64,000 nucleotides of DNA. Source: Gammaproteobacteria bacterium. GTDB taxonomy: Bacteria > Pseudomonadota > Gammaproteobacteria > SURF-13. Within the stretch, counting starts at the first letter, position 1; the number at the start of each line of letters is the position of its first letter. Both the position numbers and the translations under genes were made by a program. This document shows positions 15,881-62,869 of the stretch, piece after piece. The stretch covers positions 3,907 to 67,906 of the forward strand of contig JAURVQ010000083.1 in the NCBI GenBank assembly GCA_030655395.1, in the 5' to 3' direction. The notes below the pieces were generated by a model. The model was not told the DNA's origin. It saw only the letters and a program-made list of their open reading frames with translations, and did no database searches.

Positions 15881-15997
15881 GTTACGTCCCCGCCCCCTGT
15901 TGAGGGGGCGGGACAGGGTGGGGGTAGAGTAAAGATTGGAATTTTACCAAGAAGAAACAAAGTAAGCGGATATCGCTTACTTTGTTTCTTCTTGGTG
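15881..15997. repeat. Bipartite double-hairpin intergenic repeat (CCCGCCCCCTgttgAGGGGGCGGG + ACCAAGAAGAAAcaaagtaagcg..cgcttactttgTTTCTTCTTGGT); inverted second copy at 42399..42510
   Basis: Direct alignment of the two loci by eye (~85-90% identity). Confidence 0.75.
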
Positions 15998-20044: not shown

Positions 20045-20439
20045 GGCTGTGGCGTCGTAGTCCTCCCGCTCGGGGTTTTCACCGCTGCGGGCTGCATGGT
20101 AACAGAAAATTCTCCCTGGGTATCACGCAACCGCACGGTCGCGGGCGCCACCTCGACCACGGTTGCACCCTCGAGGGTGTCGCCGGGTTTGACCGCGCGG
20201 CCATTCACTACCGCAATGCGCCGTTGGGGCGAGATCAGTGTGGAGGTCAGCAGCCAGCGCTGGATCGGCGTAGCACTGCCGACATCGGGTTGCGCCCCGC
20301 CCACCGGTACGGCTTGGTAGTTGGGCGGCGGTTCGGTGGGATCTGACAAACCCTTCTCCGCCAGCGGCAATTCGGCTTGCACGGTGGATAGAGAAAAGAG
20401 CAAAGAGGCAAGAGAAAAGAGGAAGACACCCGCTCCCAT
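20041..20439 (-). CDS. MshK-like small periplasmic/lipoprotein (PilP-like position)
   Basis: ORF 20041..20484, start at MGAGVFLFSLASLLFSLS signal. Confidence 0.45.
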   Translation of the reverse strand: MGAGVFLFSLASLLFSLSTVQAELPLAEKGLSDPTEPPPNYQAVPVGGAQPDVGSATPIQRWLLTSTLISPQRRIAVVNGRAVKPGDTLEGATVVEVAPATVRLRDTQGEFSVTMQPAAVKTPSGRTTTPQP

Positions 20440-20478
20440 TCCTTTTCTCTTTGCTCTTGCCTCTTTGCTCTGTCTTTC
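20388..20478. repeat. Palindromic 'gagaaaag/aggcaagag' repeat; related copy at 23575..23670; here overlaps the signal-peptide codons of mshK-like gene
   Basis: Direct reading of both loci. Confidence 0.7.
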
Positions 20479-21151
20479 AGCCACCGATCCAGCCCTCCTT
20501 GAGGCTCAGGGTATGCACGGTGATGGTGATGCGGGCCTGCGGAAATGTCTGCACCCGCAAATCCACGCCGTCCCAGAACAGCCGCCACGGCAGCGCCTCC
20601 AGCGCCTTGAGGTAGCGCAGTGTGGCGAGATAGCTGCCCTCGAATTCAATCACTAGGCCGTGTTTGTAGAGCACGGGCGATGACGGCGTGGCGGGGGCGG
20701 TTGCGCTGCCGGGCGTCAGCGGCGCCGCGCCCAGATTTTTTGCGCGCACCAGTTTAAGGCCGGGTTCGCGCGTCAGCGCCTCCTCCAGCATCTGCGCCAT
20801 CTGCGCGGGCTCGATCAGGCCCTCCATCATGCGCGTGATTTTTTTGTCGAGTTCGTCGCTCTCTGTCTTGAGCGCCGCGAGCTGTGCGCGGGTTTCCTCG
20901 TTCGGGTCGAGGCCTTGCCGGGTTGCCTGGATCGCCTGAATCTGCTGTCCGAGCGCCGCGATCTGTTGCTGCACGGCGCTGATGTCGTTATTTAACCGTT
21001 TGCGCTCCGCGCCGAACGGCTGGTACACAAAGGTATTGCCCAAGGCGATGATCACGCCGAACACGATGGCGCCGAGCAGCGCGCGTTCACGCACGGCGAG
21101 TGCATTGATGCGTGAGGTGAGTTGCTGCAATGAGGCCTTGAGCGCGTCCAT
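20477..21151 (-). CDS. MshJ-like (PilO/GspM-like) inner-membrane pilus assembly protein
   Basis: ORF 224 aa, single TM then coiled-coil. Confidence 0.6.
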   Translation of the reverse strand: MDALKASLQQLTSRINALAVRERALLGAIVFGVIIALGNTFVYQPFGAERKRLNNDISAVQQQIAALGQQIQAIQATRQGLDPNEETRAQLAALKTESDELDKKITRMMEGLIEPAQMAQMLEEALTREPGLKLVRAKNLGAAPLTPGSATAPATPSSPVLYKHGLVIEFEGSYLATLRYLKALEALPWRLFWDGVDLRVQTFPQARITITVHTLSLKEGWIGG

Positions 21152-22902: not shown

Positions 22903-23568
22903 TTAATGCACGAGAAACACCAGATCCCATACCTCGCGGCCTTCGCGTGTGGCACGCCGCTCAAACTTGGAAAGCGGCCGCGCGCCGCGCGTGGCGTAGC
23001 GGTCTGCGGGACAGGCGTTGGTAAACTCAGGTGCGGCGTCGAGCACCTCCAGCATCTGCGTGGCGTAATCCTCCCAGTCGGTGCAGAGATGAAAACGTCC
23101 GCCGCGTTTGAGTTTGTTGGCCACCAGCGCAACGAAAGGCGGCTGCACGATGCGCCGTTTGTGATGGCGGCGTTTGGGCCACGGGTCGGGGAAGAACAGA
23201 TGTACGGCGTCAAGAGCCGCGTCGGGAAGGTAGCGGCCCAATACTTCCACCGCGTCGGCGCAAATCACACGCACGTTGCTGACCTGCTGCTCCGCCAGCA
23301 GGCGCAACAGATTGCCGACGCCGGGACGGTGCACCTCAATGCCGAGAAAATCCTGCTCCGGATGTGCGCGCGCCATCTCCGCCAGCGCGTCGCCCATGCC
23401 GAAACCGATCTCCAGCACGCGCGGGGCGGTGCGCCCGAACAGCGCGCTGAGATCGAGCGGTGCCGTAGCGAGATCGACGCCGTAGTCGCGCCATAGATTG
23501 TCCAGCGCCGCACGCTGGGCACCGGTCATGCGCCCCTGTCGCAATACAAAACTGCGGATGGGTTTCAC
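22903..23568 (-). CDS. trmB: tRNA (guanine46-N7)-methyltransferase
   Basis: ORF 221 aa, SAM-binding EIGFGMG motif. Confidence 0.85.
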   Translation of the reverse strand: MKPIRSFVLRQGRMTGAQRAALDNLWRDYGVDLATAPLDLSALFGRTAPRVLEIGFGMGDALAEMARAHPEQDFLGIEVHRPGVGNLLRLLAEQQVSNVRVICADAVEVLGRYLPDAALDAVHLFFPDPWPKRRHHKRRIVQPPFVALVANKLKRGGRFHLCTDWEDYATQMLEVLDAAPEFTNACPADRYATRGARPLSKFERRATREGREVWDLVFLVH

Positions 23569-23574
23569 TTAACG

Positions 23575-23670
23575 ACAGAGAAAAGAGGCAAGAGGCAAGA
23601 GAAAAGTAAAAAACAGTAACGATTTTTTAAAATGTCTCCTTTTCTCTTTTCTCTTGCCTCTTTTCTCTGG
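23575..23670. repeat. Palindromic 'cagagaaaagaggcaagaggcaagagaaaag ... cttttctcttttctcttgcctcttttctctg' hairpin, intergenic trmB/thiG
   Basis: Direct reading. Confidence 0.7.
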
Positions 23671-31009: not shown

Positions 31010-32830
31010 TTAGCCCGCCGCCGAGCGCGAGGTCTTCTTGCGTTCGTGTTCCAGCAGTTGGCGCTTGCGCAGACGGATGTAGTGCGGCGTGACCTCCACC
31101 AGTTCATCGTCGTCGATAAATTCCATCGCCTGCTCCAGCGACATGCGCACCGGCGGCACCAAGATCACGTTTTCATCCGAGCCCGAGGCGCGCATGTTGG
31201 TGAGCTGCTTGCCCTTCAGCGGGTTGACCACGAGATCGTTGTCGCGCGAGTGCAGCCCGATCACCATGCCTTCATACAACTCTTCGCCGGGGCCGATGAA
31301 CATGCGTCCGCGCTCTTGCAGGCTGAACAGCGCGAACGCCACGCTCTTGCCCGCGCCGTTGCAGATCAGCACGCCGTTGGTGCGGTTGCCGATGGTGCCT
31401 TTTTTCACCGGCGCATGATGGTCGTACACGCTGTACAGCAGGCCGGTGCCGGAGGTGAGGGTGAGGAAGTGGGTGCGGAAGCCGATCAATCCGCGTGTCG
31501 GGATCATGTATTCCAGGCGCACGCGCCCCTTGCCGTCGGGCTGCATGTTGGTGAGGTCGCCCTTGCGCAGGCCCATCTGTTCCATGATGCTGCCTTGATG
31601 CTTGTCTTCGACATCCAGCACCACGGCTTCGTAGGGTTCGCACAGCTCGCCGTTAATGACGCGGGTGATGACCTGCGGCCGGCCCAGCGCCAGCTCGTAG
31701 CCTTCACGGCGCATATTCTCGACCAGGATGCCGAGGTGCAACTCGCCGCGCCCGGAGACGCGGAATTTGTCCGGGTCAGGGGTGTCTTCCACCCGTAACG
31801 CCACGTTGTGGATCAGTTCGCGTTGCAGGCGCTCGCGAATCTGGCGGCTGGTGACGTACTTGCCGTCCTGGCCCGCCAGCGGTGAGGTGTTGACCTGAAA
31901 CATCATGCTCACCGTAGGCTCGTCGACCACGAGCGCGGGCAGGGCCTCCACCGCGGTGGGGTCGCACAGCGTATCGGAAATGCCCAGACCATCAATGCCG
32001 GTAAAGGCGATGATATCGCCGGCCTCGGCCTCCGGTATCTCGATGCGTTCCAGACCGAGCATGTTGAACAACTGCAAGATGCGCGCGTTGCGCTTCACGC
32101 CCTGCGGATTCACCACCACCACCGCCGAGTTGGCCTTGACGCGTCCGCGCGCAATGCGCCCGATGCCGATGACGCCGACGTAACTGGAATAGTCGAGCGA
32201 GCTTACCTGCATCTGGAACGGGCCGTCCGGGTTTACCTGCGGCGGCTTCACCTCATTTACTATGGTCTCGAACAACGGCGTCATGTCGCCGGAGCGCGCC
32301 TCGGCATCGAGGCTGGCATAGCCGTTCAGCGCCGAGGTGTACACCACGGGAAAGTCGAGCTGCTCCTCGGTCGCGCCGAGGCGGTCGAACAGGTCAAAGG
32401 TTTGGTCCAGCACCCAGTGTGCGCGCGCGCCGGGACGGTCGATCTTGTTGATGACGACGATGGGTTTCAGCCCCAGCGCAAAGGCCTTCTGCGCCACGAA
32501 GCGCGTCTGCGGCATGGGCCCGTCAACGGCGTCCACCAGCAGCAGCACGGCGTCCACCATGGAGAGCACGCGCTCCACCTCGCCGCCGAAATCGGCGTGG
32601 CCCGGTGTATCGACGATGTTGATGCGATAGTCGCGCCAGCGCAGCGCGGTGTTTTTGGCGAGGATGGTGATACCGCGCTCGCGCTCGATATCATTGGAGT
32701 CCATCACGCGCTCGGTGGTTGCCGCACGCGCGGCAAAGGTGCCGGACTGCTGCAAAAGCTTGTCGACCAGCGTGGTCTTGCCATGGTCAACGTGGGCGAT
32801 GATGGCGATGTTGCGTAATTTCTCTAGCAT
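31010..32830 (-). CDS. typA: Translational GTPase TypA/BipA
   Basis: ORF 606 aa AHVDHGKTT. Confidence 0.9.
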
Positions 32831-32914
32831 GATTTCTTTGGCACGATTAAAGGCCCGCGGGCAAATGACAACCGCCTATTCTACAACAAAACAGGGATTT
32901 CAGGCATAAAAAAT

Positions 32915-33090
32915 CGTGAAACGCGAGGGATGCCCGCCGGGGCGGGTTTTTAAGGGCGCGCGGCCCAAGGATGGGCCGCCATTTTCCAAACACGCCGTAT
33001 GTGTTTGGAAAATGTAGCAAAGCAAAAATCACACTTTTTGCTTTGCGGGTTGAAAAAGCCCATGGAGGGGCTTTTTCAACAACCTATCAA
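32915..33090. repeat. AT-rich multi-hairpin repeat arm A (ggcccaaggatgggcc, ccaaacac..gtgtttgg, caaagcaaaaa..tttttgctttg, gaaaaagccc..gggctttttc); inverted partner at 35188..35350
   Basis: Reverse complement of arm B aligns over ~130 bp at ~85% identity. Confidence 0.8.
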
Positions 33091-34031
33091 GTTGCGGCAG
33101 CGCTGGAGAGCGTGCAGCTTTGGCGCCGCAGCAGGTCGAAATCGTCTTGTTCCAGTATCTGGTCCAGGTGGTCGAGGTTGAGGCGGATGGCCTCGCCGTA
33201 GAGGTCCAGCCCATCGAAGTGCGCCTGGGCGAATTTCTCCACGCCGTGAAATTCCCTGTGCAGGCGATGCTGCGCCACCTTTTCATGGAATACCGGCGTT
33301 TTGCTGAGCAGGTCTTCGGGTGAGCTGTAGTTGACGTGTTCGCTGCCGTCGTCATGGCGTACGCGCGCGACGCCGCCCAGCACAAACTCGGGGTAGAGGT
33401 AATCGCGGCATTTTTCGAGGTACAGGCGATCCGACATCTGGCCCAGCAGGTCCGCGCTGCCCAGCATGAAGCCCAGCAGGCGGTCTTTCGGGTCGTCGAG
33501 CTGGATACGGCTGAGCGCGATTTCAAAGCCGGTGAAGTGCACGATCTGTCCGGCCACCGTCACGCTGTCCGGCGGGAGGCCGAGGCCCGGCAGATACTGT
33601 TCCATGAATTGCGCGCTACGCGAGACATGAGTCAGCGTGAACTCGGCGCCGTTTTTGTGCCCCGTGTCGCTCTTTTTGCGGATATAGCCGGCATCATGCA
33701 ACAGCGCCACAATGAGGCCGAGCAGCGCGCGCTCTTCTCCCAGCCTCTCGCTCTCGATGTGGTTGCGCTCGTAGCCGTCGATCAGGCGCGCCATGGCGAG
33801 GGTGACGTCCAGCGTGTGGCGCATGTCGTGGAAGCGCGTGTCGCAGGCGAGGTAACCGGGAAATTTGCCGCCGAACAGGCGCTTGAAGTCGGCGAATACC
33901 TGGTCCAGCAGGTTAATCGAGGCCGTCGGGTAGAGGCCGAGGTAGATGCGACACACGGCGGCGTTGACCGCGTCCACCGATTCTACATTGATCTTGTTGC
34001 TGACGTCGTTCTGGGTGAGACGGTAACGCAT
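33087..34031 (-). CDS. HD-domain metal-dependent phosphohydrolase-like protein
   Basis: ORF 33087..34106 trimmed to MRYRL; HD..LLHDAGY motif. Confidence 0.55.
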   Translation of the reverse strand: MRYRLTQNDVSNKINVESVDAVNAAVCRIYLGLYPTASINLLDQVFADFKRLFGGKFPGYLACDTRFHDMRHTLDVTLAMARLIDGYERNHIESERLGEERALLGLIVALLHDAGYIRKKSDTGHKNGAEFTLTHVSRSAQFMEQYLPGLGLPPDSVTVAGQIVHFTGFEIALSRIQLDDPKDRLLGFMLGSADLLGQMSDRLYLEKCRDYLYPEFVLGGVARVRHDDGSEHVNYSSPEDLLSKTPVFHEKVAQHRLHREFHGVEKFAQAHFDGLDLYGEAIRLNLDHLDQILEQDDFDLLRRQSCTLSSAAAT

Positions 34032-34134
34032 GCGGCACCTCGATATCCCGGCGGCTTGGGACAGTGTAATGCCCGCGCCGGGGGTGGGCAAGGCGTCCGG
34101 GGTCACCGAAGATAAGCTGCTGATTTTGCTCGCA

Positions 34135-35169
34135 TCAGGCCAGACCCACCCCCAGCAACGTGCCGATCAGATAGGCCATCACGCCCGCCCCGCCGCCGAT
34201 CAGCGCCAGGCGCAGGCCGCCCCACAGCGCCTGCTTGCCGGTGAACAGGCTGAGCACCGCGCCGACCAAAAACAGACACACGACTGCGGCCCCGGCGCTG
34301 ATATAGACGGCATTCGGCCCCGCAAACCACAGTGGCACCAGCGGCACCAGCGCACCCAGCGCGAAGGCAAGAAACGACCAGGTGGCCGCGCCCCACGGCG
34401 AGCCGAGTTCGTCCGGGTTGAGGCCCAGCTCCTCGCGCGCCAGTGCATCGAGCGCGTGCTCGGGGTTCTGCAACAAACTCTGCGCGGTGGCGCGCGCCTG
34501 CGCCAGCGGCACGCCGCGCGCCTGGTAGATAAGGGCGAGCTCCTCGGCCTCCTCTTCCGGGTACTCGTCCAGTTCCTCGCGTTCCAGCCCGATCTGGTAT
34601 TGGTACATCTCGCGCTGCGAGCGCATGGAGACGTACTCGCCCGCCGCCATGGAGAGTGCGCCGGCCAGCAGCCCCGCCGCGCCCGTGAGCAGCAGCACCT
34701 TGAGGTCGGCCACGGCGCCCGCCATGCCCATGATGAGGCTGGTGTTGGAGACCAGGCCGTCGCTGACGCCGAACACCGCCGCGCGCAGATTGCCGCCGCT
34801 CGTCGCGCCCCGGTGCCGTTGCCCGAAATCCTGCACCGAGGCGGGCATGGCATGGCCGCCGCGCGCGGACGCGCTGTAGACGGAGAGGCCGCGCACCTTG
34901 ATCGCGGCGAGCACCGGACGCAGCGCGCGCGGGCCGAAAGTGCGGATGAGCCGCGCCACCAGGCGTGCGCGCAACGGCGGGTGAAACGCGGCCGGCACGG
35001 CAGCGCCTTGTGCGCGCGCCTGCTGCACCCAGATGCCGGCCTGGGACTCTGCGGCCTCGCCCAAGCGCAGGAACAGCGTGCCCTTGACGGGATCGGACTC
35101 TACCTCCGCCAGCACGCGGTAGAGATACGCCGACTGCATCTCTTCGGCCCAGTTTTCAGTCGCTGACAT
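34135..35169 (-). CDS. MbfA-like protein: N-terminal rubrerythrin/ferritin-like domain fused to VIT1/CCC1 iron-transporter membrane domain
   Basis: ORF 34135..35235 trimmed to MSATENWAEEMQSAYLYR. Confidence 0.65.
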   Translation of the reverse strand: MSATENWAEEMQSAYLYRVLAEVESDPVKGTLFLRLGEAAESQAGIWVQQARAQGAAVPAAFHPPLRARLVARLIRTFGPRALRPVLAAIKVRGLSVYSASARGGHAMPASVQDFGQRHRGATSGGNLRAAVFGVSDGLVSNTSLIMGMAGAVADLKVLLLTGAAGLLAGALSMAAGEYVSMRSQREMYQYQIGLEREELDEYPEEEAEELALIYQARGVPLAQARATAQSLLQNPEHALDALAREELGLNPDELGSPWGAATWSFLAFALGALVPLVPLWFAGPNAVYISAGAAVVCLFLVGAVLSLFTGKQALWGGLRLALIGGGAGVMAYLIGTLLGVGLA

Positions 35170-35187
35170 GATCGTCTCCCGCTGTGC

Positions 35188-35350
35188 CCAATAGGTTGTT
35201 GAAAAATCCCATCCATGGGCTTTTTTAACAAGCAAAGCGAAAAGTGTGATTTTCGCTTTGCTTCATTTTTCAAACACATACACCGTGTTTGAAAAATGGC
35301 GGCACATCCTTGTGCCGCACGCAGTTTGTTTTTCAACAAACTGCTAATTT
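35188..35350. repeat. AT-rich multi-hairpin repeat arm B (inverted copy of 32915..33090)
   Basis: Direct comparison. Confidence 0.8.
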
Positions 35351-35389
35351 GCCGCTTATGCAGCCGCTAGGCTAACATGTCTCCAGTTT

Positions 35390-35641
35390 TTGCAGGATGC
35401 CGTCATGCCCAAAAAACCCTCGCTCGATTTTGAACGCACGCTCACTGAGCTGGAAGCGCTGGTCGAGCGCATGGAAAAAGGCGAGATCACGCTCGAGGCC
35501 TCGCTCAGTGATTTTGAGCGCGGCATACAGCTCATACGCCTGTGCCAGAAATCGCTCGCCGAGGCGGAGCAGAAGGTGCAGATATTGATGGAGAAGGACG
35601 GCGCGGCCCAAGCGGAACCGTTCGAGAGCGATGACGAATAG
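35390..35641 (+). CDS. xseB: Exodeoxyribonuclease VII small subunit
   Basis: ORF 83 aa. Confidence 0.85.
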   Translation: MQDAVMPKKPSLDFERTLTELEALVERMEKGEITLEASLSDFERGIQLIRLCQKSLAEAEQKVQILMEKDGAAQAEPFESDDE

Positions 35642-40273: not shown

Positions 40274-40457
40274 CCGCAGGACGTGTGAGCTATACATAGC
40301 GCCCTAAATCTACTGCGCGTCTTTGATGCGGGTGCGTGCGGTGCTCGGAATCCTCATGTACTGGTATGTACACTCCGGTTCCTGCGCTCCACCGCCCCCG
40401 CCTGAAAGCCGCTCGCTACGATTTATGTCGCTATGTATAAAAACACCGGGCGCGCTA

Positions 40458-42398: not shown

Positions 42399-42510
42399 GT
42401 ACCAAGAAGAAAAGACAAGCAATATTGCTTGTCTTTTCTTCTTGGTACCAAATCCTGTTTTACTTACCCCCACCCTGCCCCGCCCCCTAAACAGGGGGCG
42501 GGAACGTAAG
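42399..42510. repeat. Inverted copy of bipartite double-hairpin repeat seen at 15881..15997
   Basis: Direct comparison. Confidence 0.75.
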
Positions 42511-44484: not shown

Positions 44485-44513
44485 GGCTTACGCAGGAACC
44501 GCTCTGCTTTAAT

Positions 44514-44600
44514 GTGGGAGCGGGCTTGCTCGCGAATGCGGTGGGTCAGTTTATGCAACGGTGACTGACCCACCGCATTCGCGAGCAAGCCCGCTCCCAC
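44514..44600. repeat. Inverted pair of P. fluorescens-group REP elements (GTGGGAGCGGGCTTGCTCGCGAA...)
   Basis: Recognised REP consensus, palindromic doublet. Confidence 0.85.
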
Positions 44601-44646
44601 AGTTTAAAGCCGGTTCCTTCAGGATCATCTCTGAGCGGTTCCCCAA

Positions 44647-45273: not shown

Positions 45274-46953
45274 ATGAGTAACAAGAACAACGATGACTTG
45301 AAACGCCAAGCCTCGGAAAACACCCTGGGGCTGAACCCGATCATCGCGTTACGGAAAAAGGATTTACTGGCATCCGCTCGGATGGTGCTGACCCAGGCCA
45401 TCAAACAACCGTTGCACAGCGTCAAGCACGTCGCCCATTTTGGCGTCGAATTGAAGAACGTGGTGTTCGGCAAATCACAGCTGACACCCGAGGCCGACGA
45501 CCGCCGCTTCAACGACCCGGCGTGGACCCAGAACCCGCTCTACAAACGTTACCTGCAAACCTACCTGGCGTGGCGCAAGGAGCTGCACGACTGGATCGGT
45601 GACAGCAACCTGTCGGAGCACGACATCAGCCGCGGCCACTTCGTCATCAACCTGATGACCGAAGCCATGGCGCCCACCAATAGCGCGGCCAACCCGGCGG
45701 CAGTCAAACGCTTCTTCGAAACCGGCGGCAAGAGCCTGCTGGATGGCCTGTCCCACCTGGCCAAGGACATGGTGCACAACGGCGGCATGCCAAGCCAGGT
45801 CAACATGGGCGCCTTTGAAGTGGGCAAGAGCCTGGGCACCACCGAAGGCGCCGTGGTGTTTCGCAACGATGTGCTGGAGCTGATCCAGTACCGGCCGATC
45901 ACCGAGCAGGTGCACGAACGCCCACTGCTGGTGGTGCCGCCGCAGATCAACAAGTTCTATGTATTCGACCTGAGCCCGGACAAGAGCCTGGCGCGGTTCT
46001 GCCTGCGCAATAACCAGCAGACGTTTATCATCAGCTGGCGCAACCCGACCAAGGCCCAGCGCGAGTGGGGCCTGTCGACCTACATCGAGGCGCTGAAAGA
46101 AGCGGTGGATGTGGTGAGCGCGATCACCGGCAGCAAAGACATCAACATGCTTGGCGCCTGTTCCGGCGGCATCACCTGCACCGCCCTGCTGGGCCACTAC
46201 GCGGCGCTGGGCGAGAAGAAGGTCAACGCCCTGACCCTGCTGGTGAGCGTGCTGGACACCACCCTGGACACCCAGGTGGCGCTGTTCGTCGACGAGCAGA
46301 CCCTGGAAGCAGCCAAGCGCCACTCCTACCAGGCCGGTGTGCTCGAAGGCCGCGACATGGCCAAAGTATTTGCCTGGATGCGCCCCAATGACCTGATCTG
46401 GAATTACTGGGTCAACAACTACCTGCTGGGCAACGAGCCGCCGGTATTCGACATCCTGTTCTGGAACAACGACACCACCCGCTTGCCGGCCGCGTTCCAC
46501 GGCGACCTGATTGAGCTGTTCAAGAACAACCCGTTGGTTCGCGCCAATGCCCTCGAAGTGTGCGGCACGCCGATCGACCTGAAGCAGGTCACCGCCGATA
46601 TCTATTCGTTGGCCGGCACCAACGACCACATCACGCCGTGGCAGTCCTGCTACAAGTCGGCGCAGCTGTTTGGCGGCAAGGTTGAGTTTGTGTTGTCCAG
46701 CAGCGGGCATATCCAGAGCATCCTGAACCCGCCGGGCAACCCCAAGTCGCGTTACCAGACCAGCGACACGATGCCGGGCAAGGCCCTCGACTGGCAGGAG
46801 AACGCCACCAAGCACACCGATTCGTGGTGGCTGCACTGGCAAGCGTGGCAGGCGGAGCGGTCGGGCAAGTTGAAGAAGGCGCCGACGGCGTTGGGTAATA
46901 AAGCGTACGCAGCGGCTGAAGCGGCGCCGGGCACTTACGTACATGAACGATAA
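45274..46953 (+). CDS. phaC1: Class II poly(3-hydroxyalkanoate) synthase 1
   Basis: ORF 559 aa, lipase box GACSGG. Confidence 0.95.
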   Translation: MSNKNNDDLKRQASENTLGLNPIIALRKKDLLASARMVLTQAIKQPLHSVKHVAHFGVELKNVVFGKSQLTPEADDRRFNDPAWTQNPLYKRYLQTYLAWRKELHDWIGDSNLSEHDISRGHFVINLMTEAMAPTNSAANPAAVKRFFETGGKSLLDGLSHLAKDMVHNGGMPSQVNMGAFEVGKSLGTTEGAVVFRNDVLELIQYRPITEQVHERPLLVVPPQINKFYVFDLSPDKSLARFCLRNNQQTFIISWRNPTKAQREWGLSTYIEALKEAVDVVSAITGSKDINMLGACSGGITCTALLGHYAALGEKKVNALTLLVSVLDTTLDTQVALFVDEQTLEAAKRHSYQAGVLEGRDMAKVFAWMRPNDLIWNYWVNNYLLGNEPPVFDILFWNNDTTRLPAAFHGDLIELFKNNPLVRANALEVCGTPIDLKQVTADIYSLAGTNDHITPWQSCYKSAQLFGGKVEFVLSSSGHIQSILNPPGNPKSRYQTSDTMPGKALDWQENATKHTDSWWLHWQAWQAERSGKLKKAPTALGNKAYAAAEAAPGTYVHER

Positions 46954-46989
46954 AGCACACACAATTTTGTGACTGGAACGGGATCAACT

Positions 46990-47093
46990 GTGGGAGCGGG
47001 CTTGCTCGCGAAGGCGGTGTGTCAGTTGATACATCTGGAGATTGATTCACCGCCTTCGCGAGCAAGTCGAATCGTCGCACCGCCGCTCCCACA
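46990..47093. repeat. REP inverted pair (one arm interrupted)
   Basis: REP consensus. Confidence 0.8.
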
Positions 47094-48235: not shown

Positions 48236-49918
48236 ATGCGAGAAAGACCCGTATCGAACCCGGTGCCCACACCCGCCGCGTTCATCAATGCACAAAGCGC
48301 GATCACCGGCCTGCGCGGCCGGGATTTGCTCTCGACCCTGCGCAGCGTCGCCGCACACGGCCTGCGCAACCCGGTACATACCGCCCGCCACGCCCTGAAA
48401 TTGGGTGGGCAATTGGGCCGTGTGCTGCTCGGGGAAACGGTGCACGAGCCGAACCCGGCCGACAGCCGTTTCGCCGACCCGACCTGGCAGCTCAACCCGT
48501 TTTATCGGCGCAGCCTGCAAGCCTATTTGAGCTGGCAAAAACAAACCCGGCACTGGATCGACGACAGCAACCTGAGCGCCGACGACCGGGCCCGGGCGCA
48601 ATTTGCCTTTTCCCTGCTCAACGATGCGGTTTCGCCCTCCAATACGTTGCTCAACCCGCTGGCCATCAAGGAGTTGCTCAACTCCGGCGGCAATAGCGTG
48701 GTGCGTGGTGTCAGCAATCTGTTCGATGATCTGCTGCACAACAACGGCTTGCCGCGGCAGGTCACCAGGCAGGCCTTTGAAGTCGGCAAGACGGTGGCTA
48801 CCACGCCCGGCTCGGTGGTGTTTCGCAACGAACTGCTGGAGCTGATCCAGTACAAGCCCATGAGCGAAAAACAGTACGCCAAGCCGCTGCTGGTAGTGCC
48901 GCCGCAAATCAACAAGTACTACATCTTCGACCTGAGCCCGAACAACAGCTTCGTCCAGTTCGCCCTGAAAAACGGCCTGCAAGTATTCATGGTCAGCTGG
49001 CGCAACCCGGATGTACGGCATCGCGAATGGGGCCTTTCCACCTACGTAGCAGCTTTGGAAGAAGCGCTGAACGTGTGCCGCGCAATCACCGGCGCCCGCG
49101 AGGTCAACTTGATGGGCGCCTGCGCCGGTGGCCTGACCATCGCTGCGCTGCAAGGCCACCTGCAGGCCAAGCGCCAGCTGCGTCGCATCTCCAGTGCCAG
49201 TTATCTGGTGTGCCTGCTGGACAGCCAGATCGACAGCCCGGCCACCCTGTTCGCCGACGAACAAACCCTGGAAGCCGCCAAGCGCCGCTCCTATCAACAA
49301 GGTGTGCTCGATGGACGCGACATGGCCAAGGTGTTCGCCTGGATGCGTCCCAACGACCTGATCTGGAATTACTGGATCAACAACTACCTGCTGGGCAAGG
49401 AACCGCCGGCCTTCGACATCCTGTACTGGAACAACGACAACACCCGCCTGCCCGCCGCACTGCATGGCGACTTGCTGGACTTCTTCAAGCACAACCCGCT
49501 GAGTCATCCCGGTGGCCTGGAAGTTTGCGGCACGCCCATCGACTTGCAGAAGGTCACGGTGGACAGCTTCAGCGTGGGCGGGATCAACGACCACATCACG
49601 CCGTGGGACGCGGTGTACCGCTCCACCCAACTGCTGGGCGGCGACAAGCGCTTCATTCTGTCCAACAGCGGGCATATCCAGAGCATCCTCAACCCGCCAG
49701 GCAATCCCAAGGCGAACTACGTCGAGAACCTCAAGCTGAGCAGCGACCCGCGTGCCTGGTACTACGACGCAGCTCATGTCGAGGGCAGTTGGTGGCCCAA
49801 TTGGCTGGCGTGGATCCAGCAGCGCTCCGGTGTGCAGCGCGAAACCCTGACCGCCCTGGGCAACCAGAATTACCCACCGATGGAAGCGGCGCCGGGCACC
49901 TATGTGCGGGTCCGCTGA
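48236..49918 (+). CDS. phaC2: Class II PHA synthase 2
   Basis: ORF 48200..49918 trimmed to ATG MRERP; GACAGG lipase box. Confidence 0.9.
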   Translation: MRERPVSNPVPTPAAFINAQSAITGLRGRDLLSTLRSVAAHGLRNPVHTARHALKLGGQLGRVLLGETVHEPNPADSRFADPTWQLNPFYRRSLQAYLSWQKQTRHWIDDSNLSADDRARAQFAFSLLNDAVSPSNTLLNPLAIKELLNSGGNSVVRGVSNLFDDLLHNNGLPRQVTRQAFEVGKTVATTPGSVVFRNELLELIQYKPMSEKQYAKPLLVVPPQINKYYIFDLSPNNSFVQFALKNGLQVFMVSWRNPDVRHREWGLSTYVAALEEALNVCRAITGAREVNLMGACAGGLTIAALQGHLQAKRQLRRISSASYLVCLLDSQIDSPATLFADEQTLEAAKRRSYQQGVLDGRDMAKVFAWMRPNDLIWNYWINNYLLGKEPPAFDILYWNNDNTRLPAALHGDLLDFFKHNPLSHPGGLEVCGTPIDLQKVTVDSFSVGGINDHITPWDAVYRSTQLLGGDKRFILSNSGHIQSILNPPGNPKANYVENLKLSSDPRAWYYDAAHVEGSWWPNWLAWIQQRSGVQRETLTALGNQNYPPMEAAPGTYVRVR

Positions 49919-50566: not shown

Positions 50567-50568
50567 AA

Positions 50569-50656
50569 TGGGGGATCGGGCTTGCTCCCGAAAGCGAAGT
50601 GTCAGTCAACGCATGTGTAACTGATCCACCGCTTTCGCGAGCAAGCCCGCTCCCAC
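50569..50656. repeat. REP inverted pair
   Basis: REP consensus. Confidence 0.8.
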
Positions 50657-50685
50657 ATTGGATTTGTGTTGTTCTGTAGATTCCA

Positions 50686-50737: not shown

Positions 50738-51721
50738 TCAGGACTGACTGGTAGGCGTCGGGGTTGCCGGCGTTGCAGTCGGGGTAGCAGCAGCCTGGGT
50801 CGGTGGGGTCACCGAGTTGGTCGCTGGCGCCGGGGTTGCAGGCTTGGCCGCTACCGCAGGCTTTGGCGCTGCTGGCTTTTTGGCTACGGCCGGCTTCTTC
50901 GCCGCAGCCGGTTTGGCAGCCGGCTTGGACGCTGCAGGTTTAGCGGCGGGTTTGGCAGCGGCCGGCTTGGCTGCAGGTTTCGCAGCGGCTGGTTTGGCAG
51001 CAGGTTTAGCGGCAGCGGTTTTAGCCGCGGGCTTGGCTGCGGCTTTTGCTGCCGGCTTGGCGGCTGGTTTTGCCGCAGGTTTTGCAGCTGCTTTAGCGGC
51101 CACTGGTTTAGCGGCAGGCTTGGCGGCCGGTTTAGCCGCTGCGGTTTTAGTCGCAGGCTTGGCAGCCGGTTTTGCAGCAGCTTTGGCCGGCGCTTTAGCG
51201 GCTGGCTTGGCGGCAGCCTTGACCAGCGGTTTAGCGGCGGTTTTTGCAGCAGGCTTGGCCGCTGCAGTTTTCGCGGCAGGCTTGGCAGCTGGTTTAGCCG
51301 CTGCGGTTTTGGCCGCAACTGGCGCAGCTTTAAGGCCAGTGAGTTTTTCGATTTGCTTGGTCAGAGTATCGACCTTGCTGTGCAGCGCTTTCACTTCAGT
51401 ACGGCTAGGTACGCCGAGTCGCGAAATGGCACTGTTCAGGCGCTTGTCAAAAGCCCCTTCCAGTTCGCCCCACTTATCGCTGATACGTGATTTGGCAGAA
51501 CCGGCGGAAGCCTTTGCCGCATCGACTTGTTTACCCACTGTGCTCTTGGTCAACTTCTCGGCCTTCTCGCCGTCTTTAACCAAAGTCTCGAAGTATTTAC
51601 CGCCGTCACTGCTCACCTTCGAGTACACGCCTAAACCGGCCAGCCAGATCTTGCGGGAGTATTTTTCAACTTCCCCGATCCACGAGCTGCCTTCTTTATC
51701 AGTAGTCTTTTTACCAGCCAT
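50738..51721 (-). CDS. phaF: Phasin PhaF with C-terminal histone-H1-like AAKPA repeat tail
   Basis: ORF 327 aa. Confidence 0.9.
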   Translation of the reverse strand: MAGKKTTDKEGSSWIGEVEKYSRKIWLAGLGVYSKVSSDGGKYFETLVKDGEKAEKLTKSTVGKQVDAAKASAGSAKSRISDKWGELEGAFDKRLNSAISRLGVPSRTEVKALHSKVDTLTKQIEKLTGLKAAPVAAKTAAAKPAAKPAAKTAAAKPAAKTAAKPLVKAAAKPAAKAPAKAAAKPAAKPATKTAAAKPAAKPAAKPVAAKAAAKPAAKPAAKPAAKAAAKPAAKTAAAKPAAKPAAAKPAAKPAAAKPAAKPAASKPAAKPAAAKKPAVAKKPAAPKPAVAAKPATPAPATNSVTPPTQAAATPTATPATPTPTSQS

Positions 51722-58872: not shown

Positions 58873-60789
58873 ATGTATCGTTGGTTAGCCGAGAAACTGG
58901 GGAATGTCAGCGTCAACCGCAAGCTGAGCATAGGCTTCGGCCTGGTATTGGTCCTGACCCTATTGATCACCTTCACCGGCTGGACCGGCCTCAGCGGCGT
59001 GATCAGCCGTGGCGACAAGCTGGGCTATATTTCCAGCCTCAACGGGCTGTCCAAAGACCTGCGCCTGGCGCGCCTGGACTTCGAAATGCGTCGCGGCGAA
59101 CAAGGTACAGGCGCGGTCACCGACTTGATCGCACAGCTGGACAGCGGCCTGAAAACCGCCGCAGAGCTGATCGAGCAACCCGCCGACAAGCTTGTAGTGG
59201 AACAACAACAGGAAGCCTTGGGCCAATACAAAAAAGCCTTCGGCGCCATGGTGCAGGCCGGCCTCAAGCGCGAAGGTGCCCGCAGCAAACTGGGTGATAC
59301 CGCCGACAACGCCGTAGCAAAAACCAACGAAGTGGAAAAATCCCTGCTGCAAGGCGACAGCGTCACCCTGTTCAACAGCGTGGTCGACCTGAGCAAACTG
59401 ATCCAGCAAGCGCGCTTCCAGGTGCGCGGCTACACCTACAGCGGCAAGGTCGAAGCCGAACAGCCGGCTCTGGATGCCATCGACAACGCCCTGAAAAAAA
59501 TCACCGACCTCAGCGACCAGTTGCCCGAGCAATATCGGGCCAACCTGCAAGAAGCCAGCGTCTCGCTGCAGGCCTACCGCGCCGCCGTCAGCCAGTACCG
59601 CGATTCCCAGGTGGCCACCGCTGCCGCGACGAAAATCATGGCCGAGCAAGGCGACATCCTGCTCGACCGCAGCGACAAACTCACCACCTCGCAAACCGTG
59701 GTGCGCGATACCGACACTGCCCACGCCAAGAACCTGTTGCTGTTGGCCACCGCCCTCGCGCTGGCCTTCGGCATCCTCGCCGCCTGGGCCATCACCCGCC
59801 AGATTGTTATCCCGCTGAGCCAAACCCTTAAAGTCGCCGAGCGCGTAGCGGCTGGCGACCTCAGCCACAACCTGATCTCCGAACGCCGCGATGAGCTGGG
59901 GCAACTGCAACGCTCCATGCAGAGCATGACCGTGGGCCTGCGGGAGCTGATCGGCGGTATCAGCGACGGCGTCACCCAGATTGCCAGCGCCGCCGAGCAA
60001 CTGTCGTCCGTTACCGAGCAGACCAGCGCCGGGGTCAACAGCCAGAAGGTCGAGACCGACCAGGTCGCCACCGCCATGAACGAAATGGCCGCTACCGTGC
60101 AGGAAGTCGCACGTAACGCCGAGGAAGCTTCCGAGGCCGCCGTCGCCGCCGACCAGCAGGCCCGTGAGGGTGACAAGGTGGTCGGTGAGGCCATCGCCCA
60201 GATCGAGCGCCTGGCCAGCGAGGTGGGCAACTCCACCGAAGCCATGGGCCATCTCAAGCGTGAAAGCGACAAGATTGGCAGTGTGCTGGACGTCATCAAG
60301 TCGGTAGCCCAGCAAACCAACCTGCTGGCCCTTAACGCAGCGATTGAAGCGGCGCGCGCTGGCGAAGCCGGACGCGGTTTTGCGGTGGTTGCCGATGAAG
60401 TGCGCAGCCTGGCCCAACGGACGCAGAAATCCACCGAGGAGATCGAAGAGTTGATCGTCGGCCTGCAAAGCGGCACCCAGCAGGTGGCAACCATCATGGA
60501 CAACAGTCGCGGCCTGACTGACAGCAGCGTCGAGCTGACCCGCCGGGCCGGCAATGCCCTGGAAAACATCACCCGTACCGTTTCCGCGATCCAGGCGATG
60601 AACCAGCAGATCGCCACCGCCGCCGAGCAACAAAGCGCCGTGGCCGAAGAGATCAACCGCAGCGTACTCAATGTGCGGGACGTCTCCGAACAAACCTCGG
60701 CAGCCAGCGAAGAAACCGCTGCTTCCAGTGCCGAGCTGGCGCGCCTGGGGGTTTACCTGCAAAGCCTGGTAGGTCGCTTCAAGGTCTGA
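58873..60789 (+). CDS. Methyl-accepting chemotaxis protein, large periplasmic helical sensor (HBM/4HB-like), HAMP, MA domain
   Basis: ORF 638 aa. Confidence 0.85.
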
Positions 60790-60961: not shown

Positions 60962-62869
60962 ATGTTTCGTCCACTGACCCGCCTGCTTGGAAACATCAGC
61001 ATCAGCCTCAAACTTGCCCTGGGCTTTGGCCTGGTGCTCAGCCTTAGCCTGATCATCGCGTCTACCGGCTGGCAAGCCTTGAGCGCATCCCTCGAGCGCT
61101 CACAAAAACTCACCACCCTCTCGCAATTGGCCGTCGTCGGCGAAGAGCTGCGGGCTGATCGCATCGTCTATCGCACCCTTAACGACCCCGCGAGCCTGTC
61201 CAAAATAGAGCTGCACATGGACAAGATCGACCAGTTCCTGGTGGATCTTTCCCCACGATTCACCGACCTGGTCAACCAACAACAGCTGCAGGAAAGCCGA
61301 CGCTTTGTCACCAGTTTCAAAACCGCCCTCAGTGGCCTGGAGGGGCTGATCAAACAACGCGAGGACGCCCGCGAACAGCTCAAGCGCAGTTCAATCCAGA
61401 GCAGCGACAGCCTCTCGGAACTGTCCAGCAACCTGCCCAATCAAGACGATGAAAAGGCCCTCGACGCCGTAGAACAATTGCGCCAGGCCATGGAACAAGC
61501 CGAAGACCGCGCCCAAAGCCCCGCGTGGGCCACTGCGTCATTGGACGCCTATACCAACGGCGTGAGTGAAGCGCTACTGGCCCTGGACGGCGCCCAAGCG
61601 GCGGTAGGCGCACTGCCGGTTGATGCCAGCGCCCTGAAAAAAGCCCTGCTCGACTTTCGGACTCATCTGACACGCCTCAAGGATGCCCAACTCAGCACCG
61701 AAACCACCCAGAACCAGCTTGAGCAGTGGCTGGATAAGTTGCTCACGGAAAGCGACCTGCTGAGCCAGGACCAGACCGCCAAGCGCGACAAGGAAGCCAG
61801 CCTCGCCCGCACCCTGCTGCTCAACGTCACTGCGGCGGCGTTATTGCTCGGCGTCGTGGCCGCCTGGTTGATCGCCGTCCAGATCGTCGCGCCGCTGCGC
61901 CAGGCACTGCACGTGGCCAACCGGATTGCCGAAGGTGACCTGAGCCACGACATCCCGACCTCGCGCCAGGATGAACTGGGGCAGTTGCAGCGCAGCATCG
62001 GGCAAATGACCCTCAACCTGCGGGGCTTGATCAGCGGCATCGGCGACAGCGCCCAACAGATCGCCAGCGCCGCCGAACAACTGTCTGCCGTCACCGAACA
62101 GACCCGCGCCGGCGTCGACGGCCAGAAACAGGAAACCGAACAGGTGGCCACTGCCATGAATGAGATGCTCGCTACCTCCCAGGAAGTAGCGCGCCATGCC
62201 GAGCAAGCTTCACTCGCCGCTACCGAGGCCGATCAGCAGGCGAGCCAGGGCGATCAGGTGGTGGCTGAGGCTATCACCCACATCGAGCACCTGGCTCAGG
62301 AGATGGCGCGTTCAAGCCAGGCCATGCAAGGCTTGCAACAGGAAAGCCGGAAGATCGGCAGCGTGCTGGAGGTGATCAAATCGGTGTCGGAGCAGACCAA
62401 TTTGCTGGCCCTCAACGCCGCCATCGAAGCGGCCCGCGCCGGCGAGGCTGGCAGAGGCTTTGCCGTGGTCGCCGATGAAGTGCGCAGCCTGGCGCAGCGT
62501 ACCCAGCAGTCGGCCGAGGAAATCGAGGAGCTGATCAGCGGCCTGCATCGGGGCACGCAGCAGGTCGCGGACATTATGGACAACAGTCGCAGCCTCACCG
62601 ACAACAGCGTGCAACTGACCCGCCGTGCAGGAGAAGCGCTGGCGGGTATCACCCGTACCGTGTCAGTGATTCAGGAGATGAACCCGCAAATTGCCGCTGC
62701 CGCCGAGGAACAAACCGCGGTCGCCGAGGAGATCAACCGCAGCGTGTTGAAGGTCAAGGATGTATCGGAACAGACCTGGACCGCGAGTCAGGACACTGCG
62801 GCGGCCAGTGTCGAACTGGCGCGCCTGGGGGCGGATTTGCAGGTGTGGGTGGGCAAGTTCAAGGTCTGA
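60962..62869 (+). CDS. Methyl-accepting chemotaxis protein, tandem paralog of previous
   Basis: ORF 60941..62869; signalling domain almost identical to upstream MCP. Confidence 0.85.
   Translation: MFRPLTRLLGNISISLKLALGFGLVLSLSLIIASTGWQALSASLERSQKLTTLSQLAVVGEELRADRIVYRTLNDPASLSKIELHMDKIDQFLVDLSPRFTDLVNQQQLQESRRFVTSFKTALSGLEGLIKQREDAREQLKRSSIQSSDSLSELSSNLPNQDDEKALDAVEQLRQAMEQAEDRAQSPAWATASLDAYTNGVSEALLALDGAQAAVGALPVDASALKKALLDFRTHLTRLKDAQLSTETTQNQLEQWLDKLLTESDLLSQDQTAKRDKEASLARTLLLNVTAAALLLGVVAAWLIAVQIVAPLRQALHVANRIAEGDLSHDIPTSRQDELGQLQRSIGQMTLNLRGLISGIGDSAQQIASAAEQLSAVTEQTRAGVDGQKQETEQVATAMNEMLATSQEVARHAEQASLAATEADQQASQGDQVVAEAITHIEHLAQEMARSSQAMQGLQQESRKIGSVLEVIKSVSEQTNLLALNAAIEAARAGEAGRGFAVVADEVRSLAQRTQQSAEEIEELISGLHRGTQQVADIMDNSRSLTDNSVQLTRRAGEALAGITRTVSVIQEMNPQIAAAAEEQTAVAEEINRSVLKVKDVSEQTWTASQDTAAASVELARLGADLQVWVGKFKV

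Follow-up and report, generated by a model that had tools for sequence, protein, structure and literature searches.

Two inverted repeats between typA and xseB are very probably separate insertions of a dispersed, five-hairpin MITE-like element

The 64,000-nucleotide stretch of gammaproteobacterial DNA analysed here (the window, from contig JAURVQ010000083.1) contains two hairpin-rich repeats in inverted orientation, arm A on the typA side and arm B on the xseB side, with an HD-family gene and a VIT1/CCC1-family gene between them. Did the arms carry these two genes into a conserved interval, or did they reach resident genes one at a time? A preliminary description had favoured the former and proposed that an iron module was brought in by a mobile or foldback-flanked cassette, or by an integrative element now present as a remnant. 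We found the genes in place in relatives that lack the arms. The arms are very probably two separate insertions of one non-autonomous, AT-rich element of ~155 bp and five hairpins, resembling a miniature inverted-repeat transposable element (MITE) and present in many copies in a clade of uncultured Gammaproteobacteria.

A repeat search of the window returned 32956-33087 and 35191-35322 as one inverted pair of 132 nt with 89% complementarity, the longest inverted repeat of the 64 kb. This bears out the earlier view that the arms are reverse complements of each other (there put at about 85%). The limits given with it, 32915-33090 and 35188-35350, contain the arms but are too wide: in a MAFFT alignment the similarity was bounded at the pair named above, with 32915-32955 and 35323-35350 left unmatched. 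All four hairpins quoted for each arm were found in both arms, and in three of the four the differences between arm A and arm B were compensatory changes. The 21-nt core of hairpin 2 occurred exactly twice in the window, against zero expected in shuffles. Both arms are indeed AT-rich, with a GC content of 48% (arm A) and 39% (arm B), though against a background of 61.4% for the whole window and not the ~67% assumed before. Ordinary intrinsic terminators of typA and xseB were considered as another source of the arms and ruled out by the 89% identity over 132 nt and by the 65-member family at unrelated loci that is described below.

To place the gene pair we used four syntenic contigs, three short ones found via homologues of the HD protein (L043, L044 and L045) plus L010. 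The order xseB, VIT1, HD gene, typA, with xseB and VIT1 divergent, was kept in all four. Their mbfA DNA identity to the window was 77% for L044, 85% for L045, 91% for L043 and 90% for L010. Arm A and arm B were both absent from L043, L044 (spacers of 101 and 81 nt) and L045. L010 had an orthologous copy of arm A but no arm B, with 14 nt replacing window positions 35191-35347. The same gene order without arms in relatives indicates that the genes are resident and that the arms are two later, independent insertions. That relatives hold both genes in this interval without the repeats is also the finding that the preliminary description had itself set against a cassette.

It is therefore extremely improbable that a composite or foldback element, or an integrative remnant, jointly carried the HD and VIT1 genes into the typA-xseB interval. 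Two homologous inverted arms do bracket exactly two genes, as homologous inverted repeats surround genes in composite transposons and foldback-flanked cassettes. Here, however, relatives have the genes at the site with no arm or with one, the repeats arrived at different times, and one of them lacks its outer end. The outer flanks of the pair, where a duplication was looked for, were not duplicated, and the outer (5') end of arm A had no terminal inverted repeat (TIR). Nor are the arms more alike than unrelated copies, with 89% identity to each other and up to 92% to copies in other species. The GC content of the two supposed cargo genes (61.6% and 70.4%) was judged ordinary beside that of the flanking genes (63-65%). 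In the Burkholderiales contig L073 an HD homologue was found ~4 kb from typA, and the proximity of HD to typA without VIT1 in Burkholderiales-level relatives suggests that the HD-typA linkage predates the association with VIT1. In these relatives (L073:6001-12703, L074 and L076) the HD gene follows an AIRS-domain (selD/thiL-like) gene and has no VIT1 neighbour. A separate observation concerns the closest syntenic genome, in which a deletion of ~514 bp (L010:7319-7326 against window 33352-33865) lies inside the HD-family gene; this gene is probably a pseudogene in L010.

The part of the earlier reading that stood was the word MITE, as the arms are copies of a dispersed ~155-bp family with TIRs and TA flanks. 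A pattern scan for the exact hairpin-2 core, run on one genome per species with a pattern that did not include the GGA loops discussed below, found 42 loci, about 35 of them in metagenome-assembled genomes (MAGs) of Gammaproteobacteria. The hosts were labelled Acidiferrobacterales, 'Muproteobacteria', Tenderia or unclassified, and form an uncultured gammaproteobacterial clade. Up to five contigs of one MAG matched, and many matches lay at contig ends. A scan of metagenomes contributed 27 further loci. BLAST showed that the whole arm, beyond hairpin 2, was common to other loci at 80-92% identity. A covariance model was then built from 26 copies and used together with BLAST and nhmmer. The count of arm copies in relatives, a check proposed in the preliminary description, came to 74 forward matches in 62 loci at 46-193 bits, 65 of them distinct. 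Reverse-strand matches never exceeded 41 bits, so the element has a defined polarity. At least seven copies were found on four contigs of MAG JAMCTV01, at least five contigs of CAYJBG01 carried the family, and L004 held three copies within 6.5 kb. Copies within a MAG were no more similar than copies from different MAGs (0.80 vs 0.79), suggesting that the family is old and not the product of a recent burst.

Searches elsewhere were negative. Arm B gave no blastn match in plasmid and phage collections, and the exact hairpin-2 pattern was not found in a viral contig collection. Rfam searches with the arms, at gathering thresholds and at E<=10, returned no family and only a faint match to RsmV, the best score of either arm (12.4 bits, E 1.5). 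Literature searches joining MITE with CsrA/GGA, or Acidiferrobacterales with repeats, yielded nothing relevant.

An alignment that included the flanks placed the termini of the element at (Y)TA-GCAGGYTGTTGAAAAA ... TTTTTCAACARCCTGC-TA(R). Similarity ended at these points ((Y)TA-GCAGG...CCTGC-TA(R)) and the flanks beyond were unrelated. The TIRs are ~16-18 bp long, with the TA outside them, and read GCAGGYTGTTGAAAAA and TTTTTCAACARCCTGC in most copies. Standard copies measure 151-160 bp (~155 bp) and variants reach 262 bp. The five hairpins are arranged in the order 5 (the 5' TIR folded on itself), 1, 2, 3 and 4. In hairpin 4 the 3' arm overlaps the 3' TIR, and the A-tract/T-tract arms resemble a bidirectional terminator; arm A shows both features. 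A second subfamily has the same core between other, mutually complementary termini (TAAGGAACCTCTGA ... TCAGAGTTTTCTTA, with TAAGRAAMCTCTGA at both ends). Long variants, 190-262 nt in length, have additional modules within hairpin 3 or behind it. They comprise L036:6839-7100, L052, L057, L051:3619-3842, L002, L015, L016, L028, L059, L064, L066 and L068, with one or two copies of a ~50-nt module (GCCGUGCAGGAUGCAC..GCCGCGAGCGCAGGGAUGCGCGGGAGCGGC), and contain 5-8 GGA and no TCC. At the other extreme, L054:1891-1919 is a 29-bp mini-element (TTAGCAGGCTGTTGAAAAACAGCCTACTAA) that consists of the two TIR halves alone between TA flanks; it was either derived by internal deletion or left behind by excision or repair.

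The hairpins are maintained by covariation. Over the 65 distinct copies, 97.7% of the cells at paired positions form standard pairs, and double-sided changes were found in 34 of the 51 pairs (223 cells). None of 500 shuffles reached the observed pairing values. When the partners were slid by 1-3 columns as a control, pairing fell to 39-51%.

The mode of insertion could be read from two sites that are filled in one genome and empty in another. The ispA stop is an empty site in the window (TCTAAT-TA-GGTTTG) and a filled one in L004 (AGC-TA-element-TA-GGATAC). For the HD stop the empty site is that of L043 (GTCTT-TA-AGGCG), and the filled sites are those of L010 (TTTT-TA-element-TA-AGCTG) and of the window. 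These two comparisons point to insertion at TA with a 2-bp TA duplication, and the flanks of the copies were mostly YTA-...-TAR. A YTAR/CTAG-like TA target together with TIRs is the signature of elements of the IS630/Tc1-mariner group of insertion sequences (ISs) and of their MITEs.

We then looked at the position of the copies relative to genes, using a codon log-odds gene caller that had been trained on window genes and whose calls for L044 agreed with the annotation. All 65 distinct copies lay outside called genes. Gene 3' ends faced the element more often than 5' ends, and in 31 of the 63 facing 3' ends the stop codon lay within the terminal TA(G/A) of the element. In L004 one copy makes up the whole spacer of two convergent genes and supplies both stops. 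Orientation relative to neighbours was random (25 sense and 28 antisense after gene ends, 17 and 21 before gene starts).

A simple mechanism may explain this distribution. The element would insert at TA dinucleotides and duplicate the TA, as IS630/Tc1-mariner elements do, and in a GC-rich genome TA would be concentrated in stop codons. Given the TA-G terminus, insertion into a TAA or TAG stop would restore a stop in either orientation, and the A-tract/T-tract hairpins could replace the displaced terminator in either direction. With a restored stop and a substitute terminator, insertions would be tolerated and would accumulate at gene 3' ends.

The family has the properties of bacterial MITEs as tabulated, with Correia/NEMIS among them, by Delihas 2007 (PMC2229807): small size, copies outside called genes, TIRs, TA duplication in the filled/empty pairs and multiple dispersed copies. 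With MITEs derived from IS630/Tc1-mariner elements it shares TA insertion with a 2-bp duplication at a CTAG-like target. It is a new MITE of the TA-duplicating kind, of which no Rfam or literature record was found; Correia/NEMIS and RUP are the closest analogues and have no sequence relation to it. Correia/NEMIS elements of Neisseria are likewise ~100-160 bp long with long TIRs, TA termini with duplication and many intergenic copies, form very stable transcript stem-loops that affect neighbouring mRNAs, and vary in size via internal modules. The present element differs from them in sequence, TIRs and host clade, folds into five local hairpins rather than one long foldback, has conserved CANGGANG loops, and contributes the stop codon to half of the gene 3' ends that face it. 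RUP of S. pneumoniae and other IS630/Tc1-mariner MITEs are also non-autonomous, on the ~100-bp scale, with TIRs and TA insertion plus duplication, and the IS630-type target YTAR/CTAG is often seen in the present flanks. A cognate IS630-family IS is known for RUP, whereas none was found here in 589 kb of loci, and the internal structure and GGA loops have no counterpart in RUP. ERIC/IRU and BOX resemble the element in being intergenic, modular, transcribed as stable hairpins and conserved across species, but have other sequences and hosts. To our knowledge, these and similar families have not been reported to carry CsrA-type loops.

The two arms of the window represent different stages in the history of such insertions (Table 1). 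Arm A is the older copy. Its covariance-model match (32939-33090) scored 160 bits, the nhmmer match covered model positions 26-158, and a BLAST comparison showed that the first ~25 nt of the full-length element are missing. On the left it is flanked by TA (32951-32952). On the right, positions 33088-33089 have changed from TA to CA, and with this change the HD stop is TGA in the window and TAA in L010. The arm is placed exactly at the HD stop, convergent with the HD gene and 125 nt upstream of the typA start. Hairpins 3 and 4, judged from their minus-strand sequence, probably now end the VIT1-HD transcript. Arm A of the window and its orthologue in L010 differ in hairpin 2, by a compensatory change (C:G to U:A), and in hairpin 4, by a paired deletion of one base.

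Arm B is recent and specific to the window lineage, which fits its intact ends. It is flanked by TA at 35192-35193 and 35345-35346, and its covariance-model match (35188-35347) reached 180.9 bits over model positions 1-160. The arm lies in sense orientation 22 nt upstream of the VIT1 ATG and, in the direction of VIT1, downstream of a block (TTTGCCGCTYATGCAGC..CTAGGCTAACATGT) that the empty alleles also conserve and that presumably contains divergent promoters. From this position between the promoter block and the VIT1 start, the VIT1 leader would contain all five hairpins. A sigma70 scan of 32700-35500 detected no promoter-like site. The predicted fold of the arm B RNA is very stable (z = -9.0), and its context, between divergent gene starts, is the rarest class (5 of the 48 copies with both neighbours called). 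With five stable hairpins added to the leader, one of them terminator-like, arm B probably lowers or re-wires VIT1 expression. The stem of its hairpin 4 has two mismatches relative to the family consensus, which is unusual for the family and could be a relaxation that allows read-through.

Table 1. Coordinates of the two arms, their hairpins and the surrounding genes in the window
Feature	Position	Strand	Remarks
typA/bipA	31010..32830	-	label confirmed
Arm A, copy without the 5' TIR/hairpin-5 module	32953..33087	+ (GGA strand)	from covariance model, nhmmer and orthologous copy in L010
Arm A hairpin 1, GCGGCCCAAGGATGGGCCGC	32960..32979	+	loop GGA at 32969-32971
Arm A hairpin 2	32980..33014	+	perfect 14-bp AU-rich stem
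Arm A hairpin 3	33017..33046	+	terminator-like on minus strand
Arm A hairpin 4, GTTGAAAAAGCCC-ATGGAG-GGGCTTTTTCAAC	33049..33080	+	loop GGA at 33064-33066
HD-family gene stop codon TGA	33087..33089	-	last base of arm A plus former TA target
Npun_R2479-family HD-domain protein, 314 aa	33087..34031	-	weak family match; resident gene
VIT1/CCC1-family protein, 344 aa	34135..35169	-	resident gene; leader now holds arm B
Arm B, full-length copy, 151 bp between TA flanks	35194..35344	- (GGA strand)	same strand as VIT1
Arm B hairpin 4	35198..35229	-	terminator-like; GGA at 35212-35214; ends 28 nt upstream of VIT1 ATG
Arm B hairpin 3	35230..35263	-	
Arm B hairpin 2	35264..35298	-	
Arm B hairpin 1, GCGGCACAAGGAUGUGCCGC	35299..35318	-	GGA at 35307-35309
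Arm B hairpin 5 / 5' TIR, GCAGTTTGTTGAAAAACAAACTGC	35321..35344	-	
Conserved block TTTGCCGCTYATGCAGC..CTAGGCTAACATGT	35348-35385		upstream of xseB, outside arm B
xseB	35405..35641	+	followed by ispA and dxs; labels xseB and ispA confirmed

Taken in order, the gene arrangement xseB, VIT1, HD, typA is ancestral. Arm A probably entered the HD gene at its TAA stop, in an ancestor common to the window and L010, and later lost its 5' TIR module. Arm B followed, in the window lineage only, upstream of the VIT1 start codon. That the arms are inverted is most likely a coincidence, and the pair is not a mobile unit.

Several points weigh against this account of two MITE-like insertions. Only two copies are visible in the 64-kb window. 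The empty sites of arm B are not clean, as L010 and L043 carry extra small indels beside the junction. The left boundary of arm A is an inferred one, with no recognisable 5' TIR. The window, L043 and L010 form a trichotomy (identities 90.7, 90.2 and 89.7%; informative sites 14/7/12), so that arm A was either gained in the ancestor of the window and L010 or lost in L043. The 589 kb of loci contained no autonomous IS with the family TIRs and no IS-spaced orphan TIR pair, and the family of the transposase is therefore deduced only from the TA flanks and TIRs. Finally, a loop motif is strictly conserved on one strand, which is unexpected for a plain selfish MITE.

This motif is C-A-N-G-G-A-N-G and stands, on the same strand, in the loops of hairpins 1 and 4; both N positions are free and the stems covary. 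In hairpin 1 the loop G, G and A were present in 62 of 62, 63 of 63 and 64 of 65 distinct copies, and in hairpin 4 in 54 of 54, 51 of 53 and 53 of 53. As a sequence, the motif is the one recognised by CsrA/RsmA, a GGA in a hairpin loop. The consensus selected for CsrA by SELEX (systematic evolution of ligands by exponential enrichment) is RUACARGGAUGU (PMC4347634), and hairpin 1 of arm B (GCACAAGGAUGU) agrees with it at 11 of 12 positions. The long variants add two to six further GGA in predicted loops or linkers. The longest series was seen in L036, with eight GGA and no TCC, seven of the eight being unpaired in the minimum-free-energy fold. The 3' half of this copy scored 28.8 bits (E 2e-5) over the entire RsmY model of Rfam (RF00195), a value that is significant for a small search and lies well below the gathering score of 57. 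No match at gathering level to the Rsm/Csr families, Rfam clan CL00106, was found in the window. With an RsmY-like motif architecture that failed the model thresholds, the element was not filed under the Rsm/Csr small RNAs (sRNAs).

The likeness to RsmY/RsmZ/CsrB is one of design: one strand has several A(N)GGA, placed in short hairpin loops and in linkers, with a rho-independent terminator behind them. In the alignment of L036 to the whole RsmY model, GUGCAGGAUGCAC was aligned to GCGCAGGAAGCGC and CAGGGAUG to CAAGGAUG, and the terminator was covered as well. Unlike these sRNAs, standard copies have only two GGA loops, the family consists of dozens of transposon-like copies and not of one to few regulated genes, and there is no GacA/UvrY-type upstream box or shared promoter. 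A sigma70-like site (TTGAAA-16-AATGAT/AATCAT) occurs on the GGA strand in 10 of the 65 copies, neither window arm being among them; the opposite strand has such a site in four. In L036 it ends just before the RsmY-like part. An internal promoter was rejected as an explanation for the whole family, as the site fits only these 10 copies.

These observations raise the question of whether the repeats are RNA genes first and transposons only in appearance, i.e. multi-copy Rsm/Csr-type sRNA genes or cis-acting CsrA-binding modules whose terminal inverted repeats are RNA closing helices. This is improbable. The invariant C-A-N-GGA-N-G in two loops of one strand, the long variants with up to eight GGA and no TCC, the RsmY match over the full model, the terminator-like hairpin 4 with the promoter-like site of L036 just before its RsmY-like part, and the core common to two subfamilies with different termini all speak for it. 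So does the excess of G.U over A.C among stem mismatches on the GGA strand (59 vs 28), although these events are not independent and the alignment was fitted to the model. On the other hand, the TA flanks and the two filled/empty pairs indicate transposition, no upstream promoter is common to the flanks of the copies, the sigma70-like site is confined to a minority of them, the RsmY score falls short of gathering, and orientation relative to neighbouring genes, used as a test of an RNA-level role, showed no bias. A tblastn search with E. coli CsrA found no csrA in the window, nor did it find one in the loci, whose 589 kb are a sample of only ~0.2 genome equivalents.

Selection on single-stranded DNA might also account for conserved hairpins and loops, if the repeats were palindromes of the REP/BIME type (REP, repetitive extragenic palindromic) or similar, moved by an HUH enzyme (RAYT or IS200-IS605-like) with the loops as signals. 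A REP is a single palindrome, 20-40 nt long, that has a conserved 5' tetranucleotide and lacks both TIR and target-site duplication. The maintenance of hairpins by compensatory changes even between orthologous copies, the strand-specific conservation of the loops and the excess of G.T over A.C would fit such selection as well. The present unit, however, has ~155 bp, five hairpins, TIRs and a TA duplication, the window arms lie in opposite orientation 2 kb apart and show no replication-strand bias, and no RAYT gene was seen in the loci, where no systematic RAYT search was made. We regard this explanation as very unlikely.

Within the preferred reading of a MITE-like family, the core behaves like cargo, since the two subfamilies keep it while their TIRs change. 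The element might, as a tentative extension drawn from the sequences, be a mobile carrier of an Rsm/Csr-type module made up of CsrA/RsmA-binding hairpins (the CANGGANG loops) and a terminator, and every insertion would then supply either a decoy for CsrA or a leader or 3' untranslated region that responds to CsrA. If this is so, the long variants, with their 5-8 GGA and a promoter-like site inside, would be RsmY-like sRNA genes carried by a transposon, and arm B would have put the VIT1 iron/manganese exporter gene under CsrA control.

The gene labels of the preliminary description were confirmed for typA, xseB and VIT1. The label 'HD-domain protein' holds as a weak match to the NCBIfam family Npun_R2479 (1.7e-10, below the cut-off; Pfam HD E=0.13). 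Homologues of this protein carry a precomputed PF28239 annotation, and an exact look-up of the window HD protein found no identical protein on record. As to the 'MbfA-like ferritin' part of the VIT1 label, Pfam detected no ferritin-like N-domain in this protein even at E<=1.

The window contains other repeats. A second dispersed repeat of 45 nt (TTACGTCCCCGCCCCCTGTTGAGGGGGCGGGACAGGGTGGGGGTA) occurs at 15882-15926 and 42465-42509 (93% alike) and at L045:1-60, a contig end beside the xseB-side spacer. Palindromic repeats (TGTGGGAGCGGGCTTGCTCGCGAA...TTCGCGAGCAAGCCCGCTCCCACA) at 44511-44604, 46983-47033 and 50567-50663 resemble Pseudomonas-type REP sequences, which are unexpected beside Acidiferrobacterales-like synteny and may reflect a mixed assembly or a REP type shared by the organism. 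A long series of GC-rich tandem repeats with a 12/15-nt periodicity (GCNGCNGGYTTNGC...) at 50892-51330 is probably, when read on the opposite strand, the coding sequence of a repetitive protein rich in Ala and Lys. Direct repeats of 300 nt form two pairs, 46240-46539 / 49205-49504 (82%) and 60262-60561 / 62342-62641 (79%), which are likely paralogous genes in tandem. AG-rich repeats (GAGAAAAGAGCAAAGAGGCAAGAG) at 20374-20494 and 23568-23615 form direct and inverted copies 3 kb apart. The Rfam family sX9, a Xanthomonas sRNA, matched at 40356-40430 (+) with 44.3 bits and so only just reached its gathering score (44).

For the typA-xseB locus these results mean that nothing was delivered and that the iron-transport pair is to be read as resident genes. 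The family itself breaks assemblies of a widespread groundwater and sediment clade, as seen from the many copies at contig ends, and gives a sizeable share of genes their stop codons and probably their terminators. Even orthologous copies show compensatory evolution, and one strand retains precisely the motif to which the global regulator CsrA binds. Should CsrA indeed bind the element, transposition would here have spread a regulatory RNA module. This would be a means of rewiring a post-transcriptional regulon and would provide CsrA antagonists to lineages in which no such antagonist is known.

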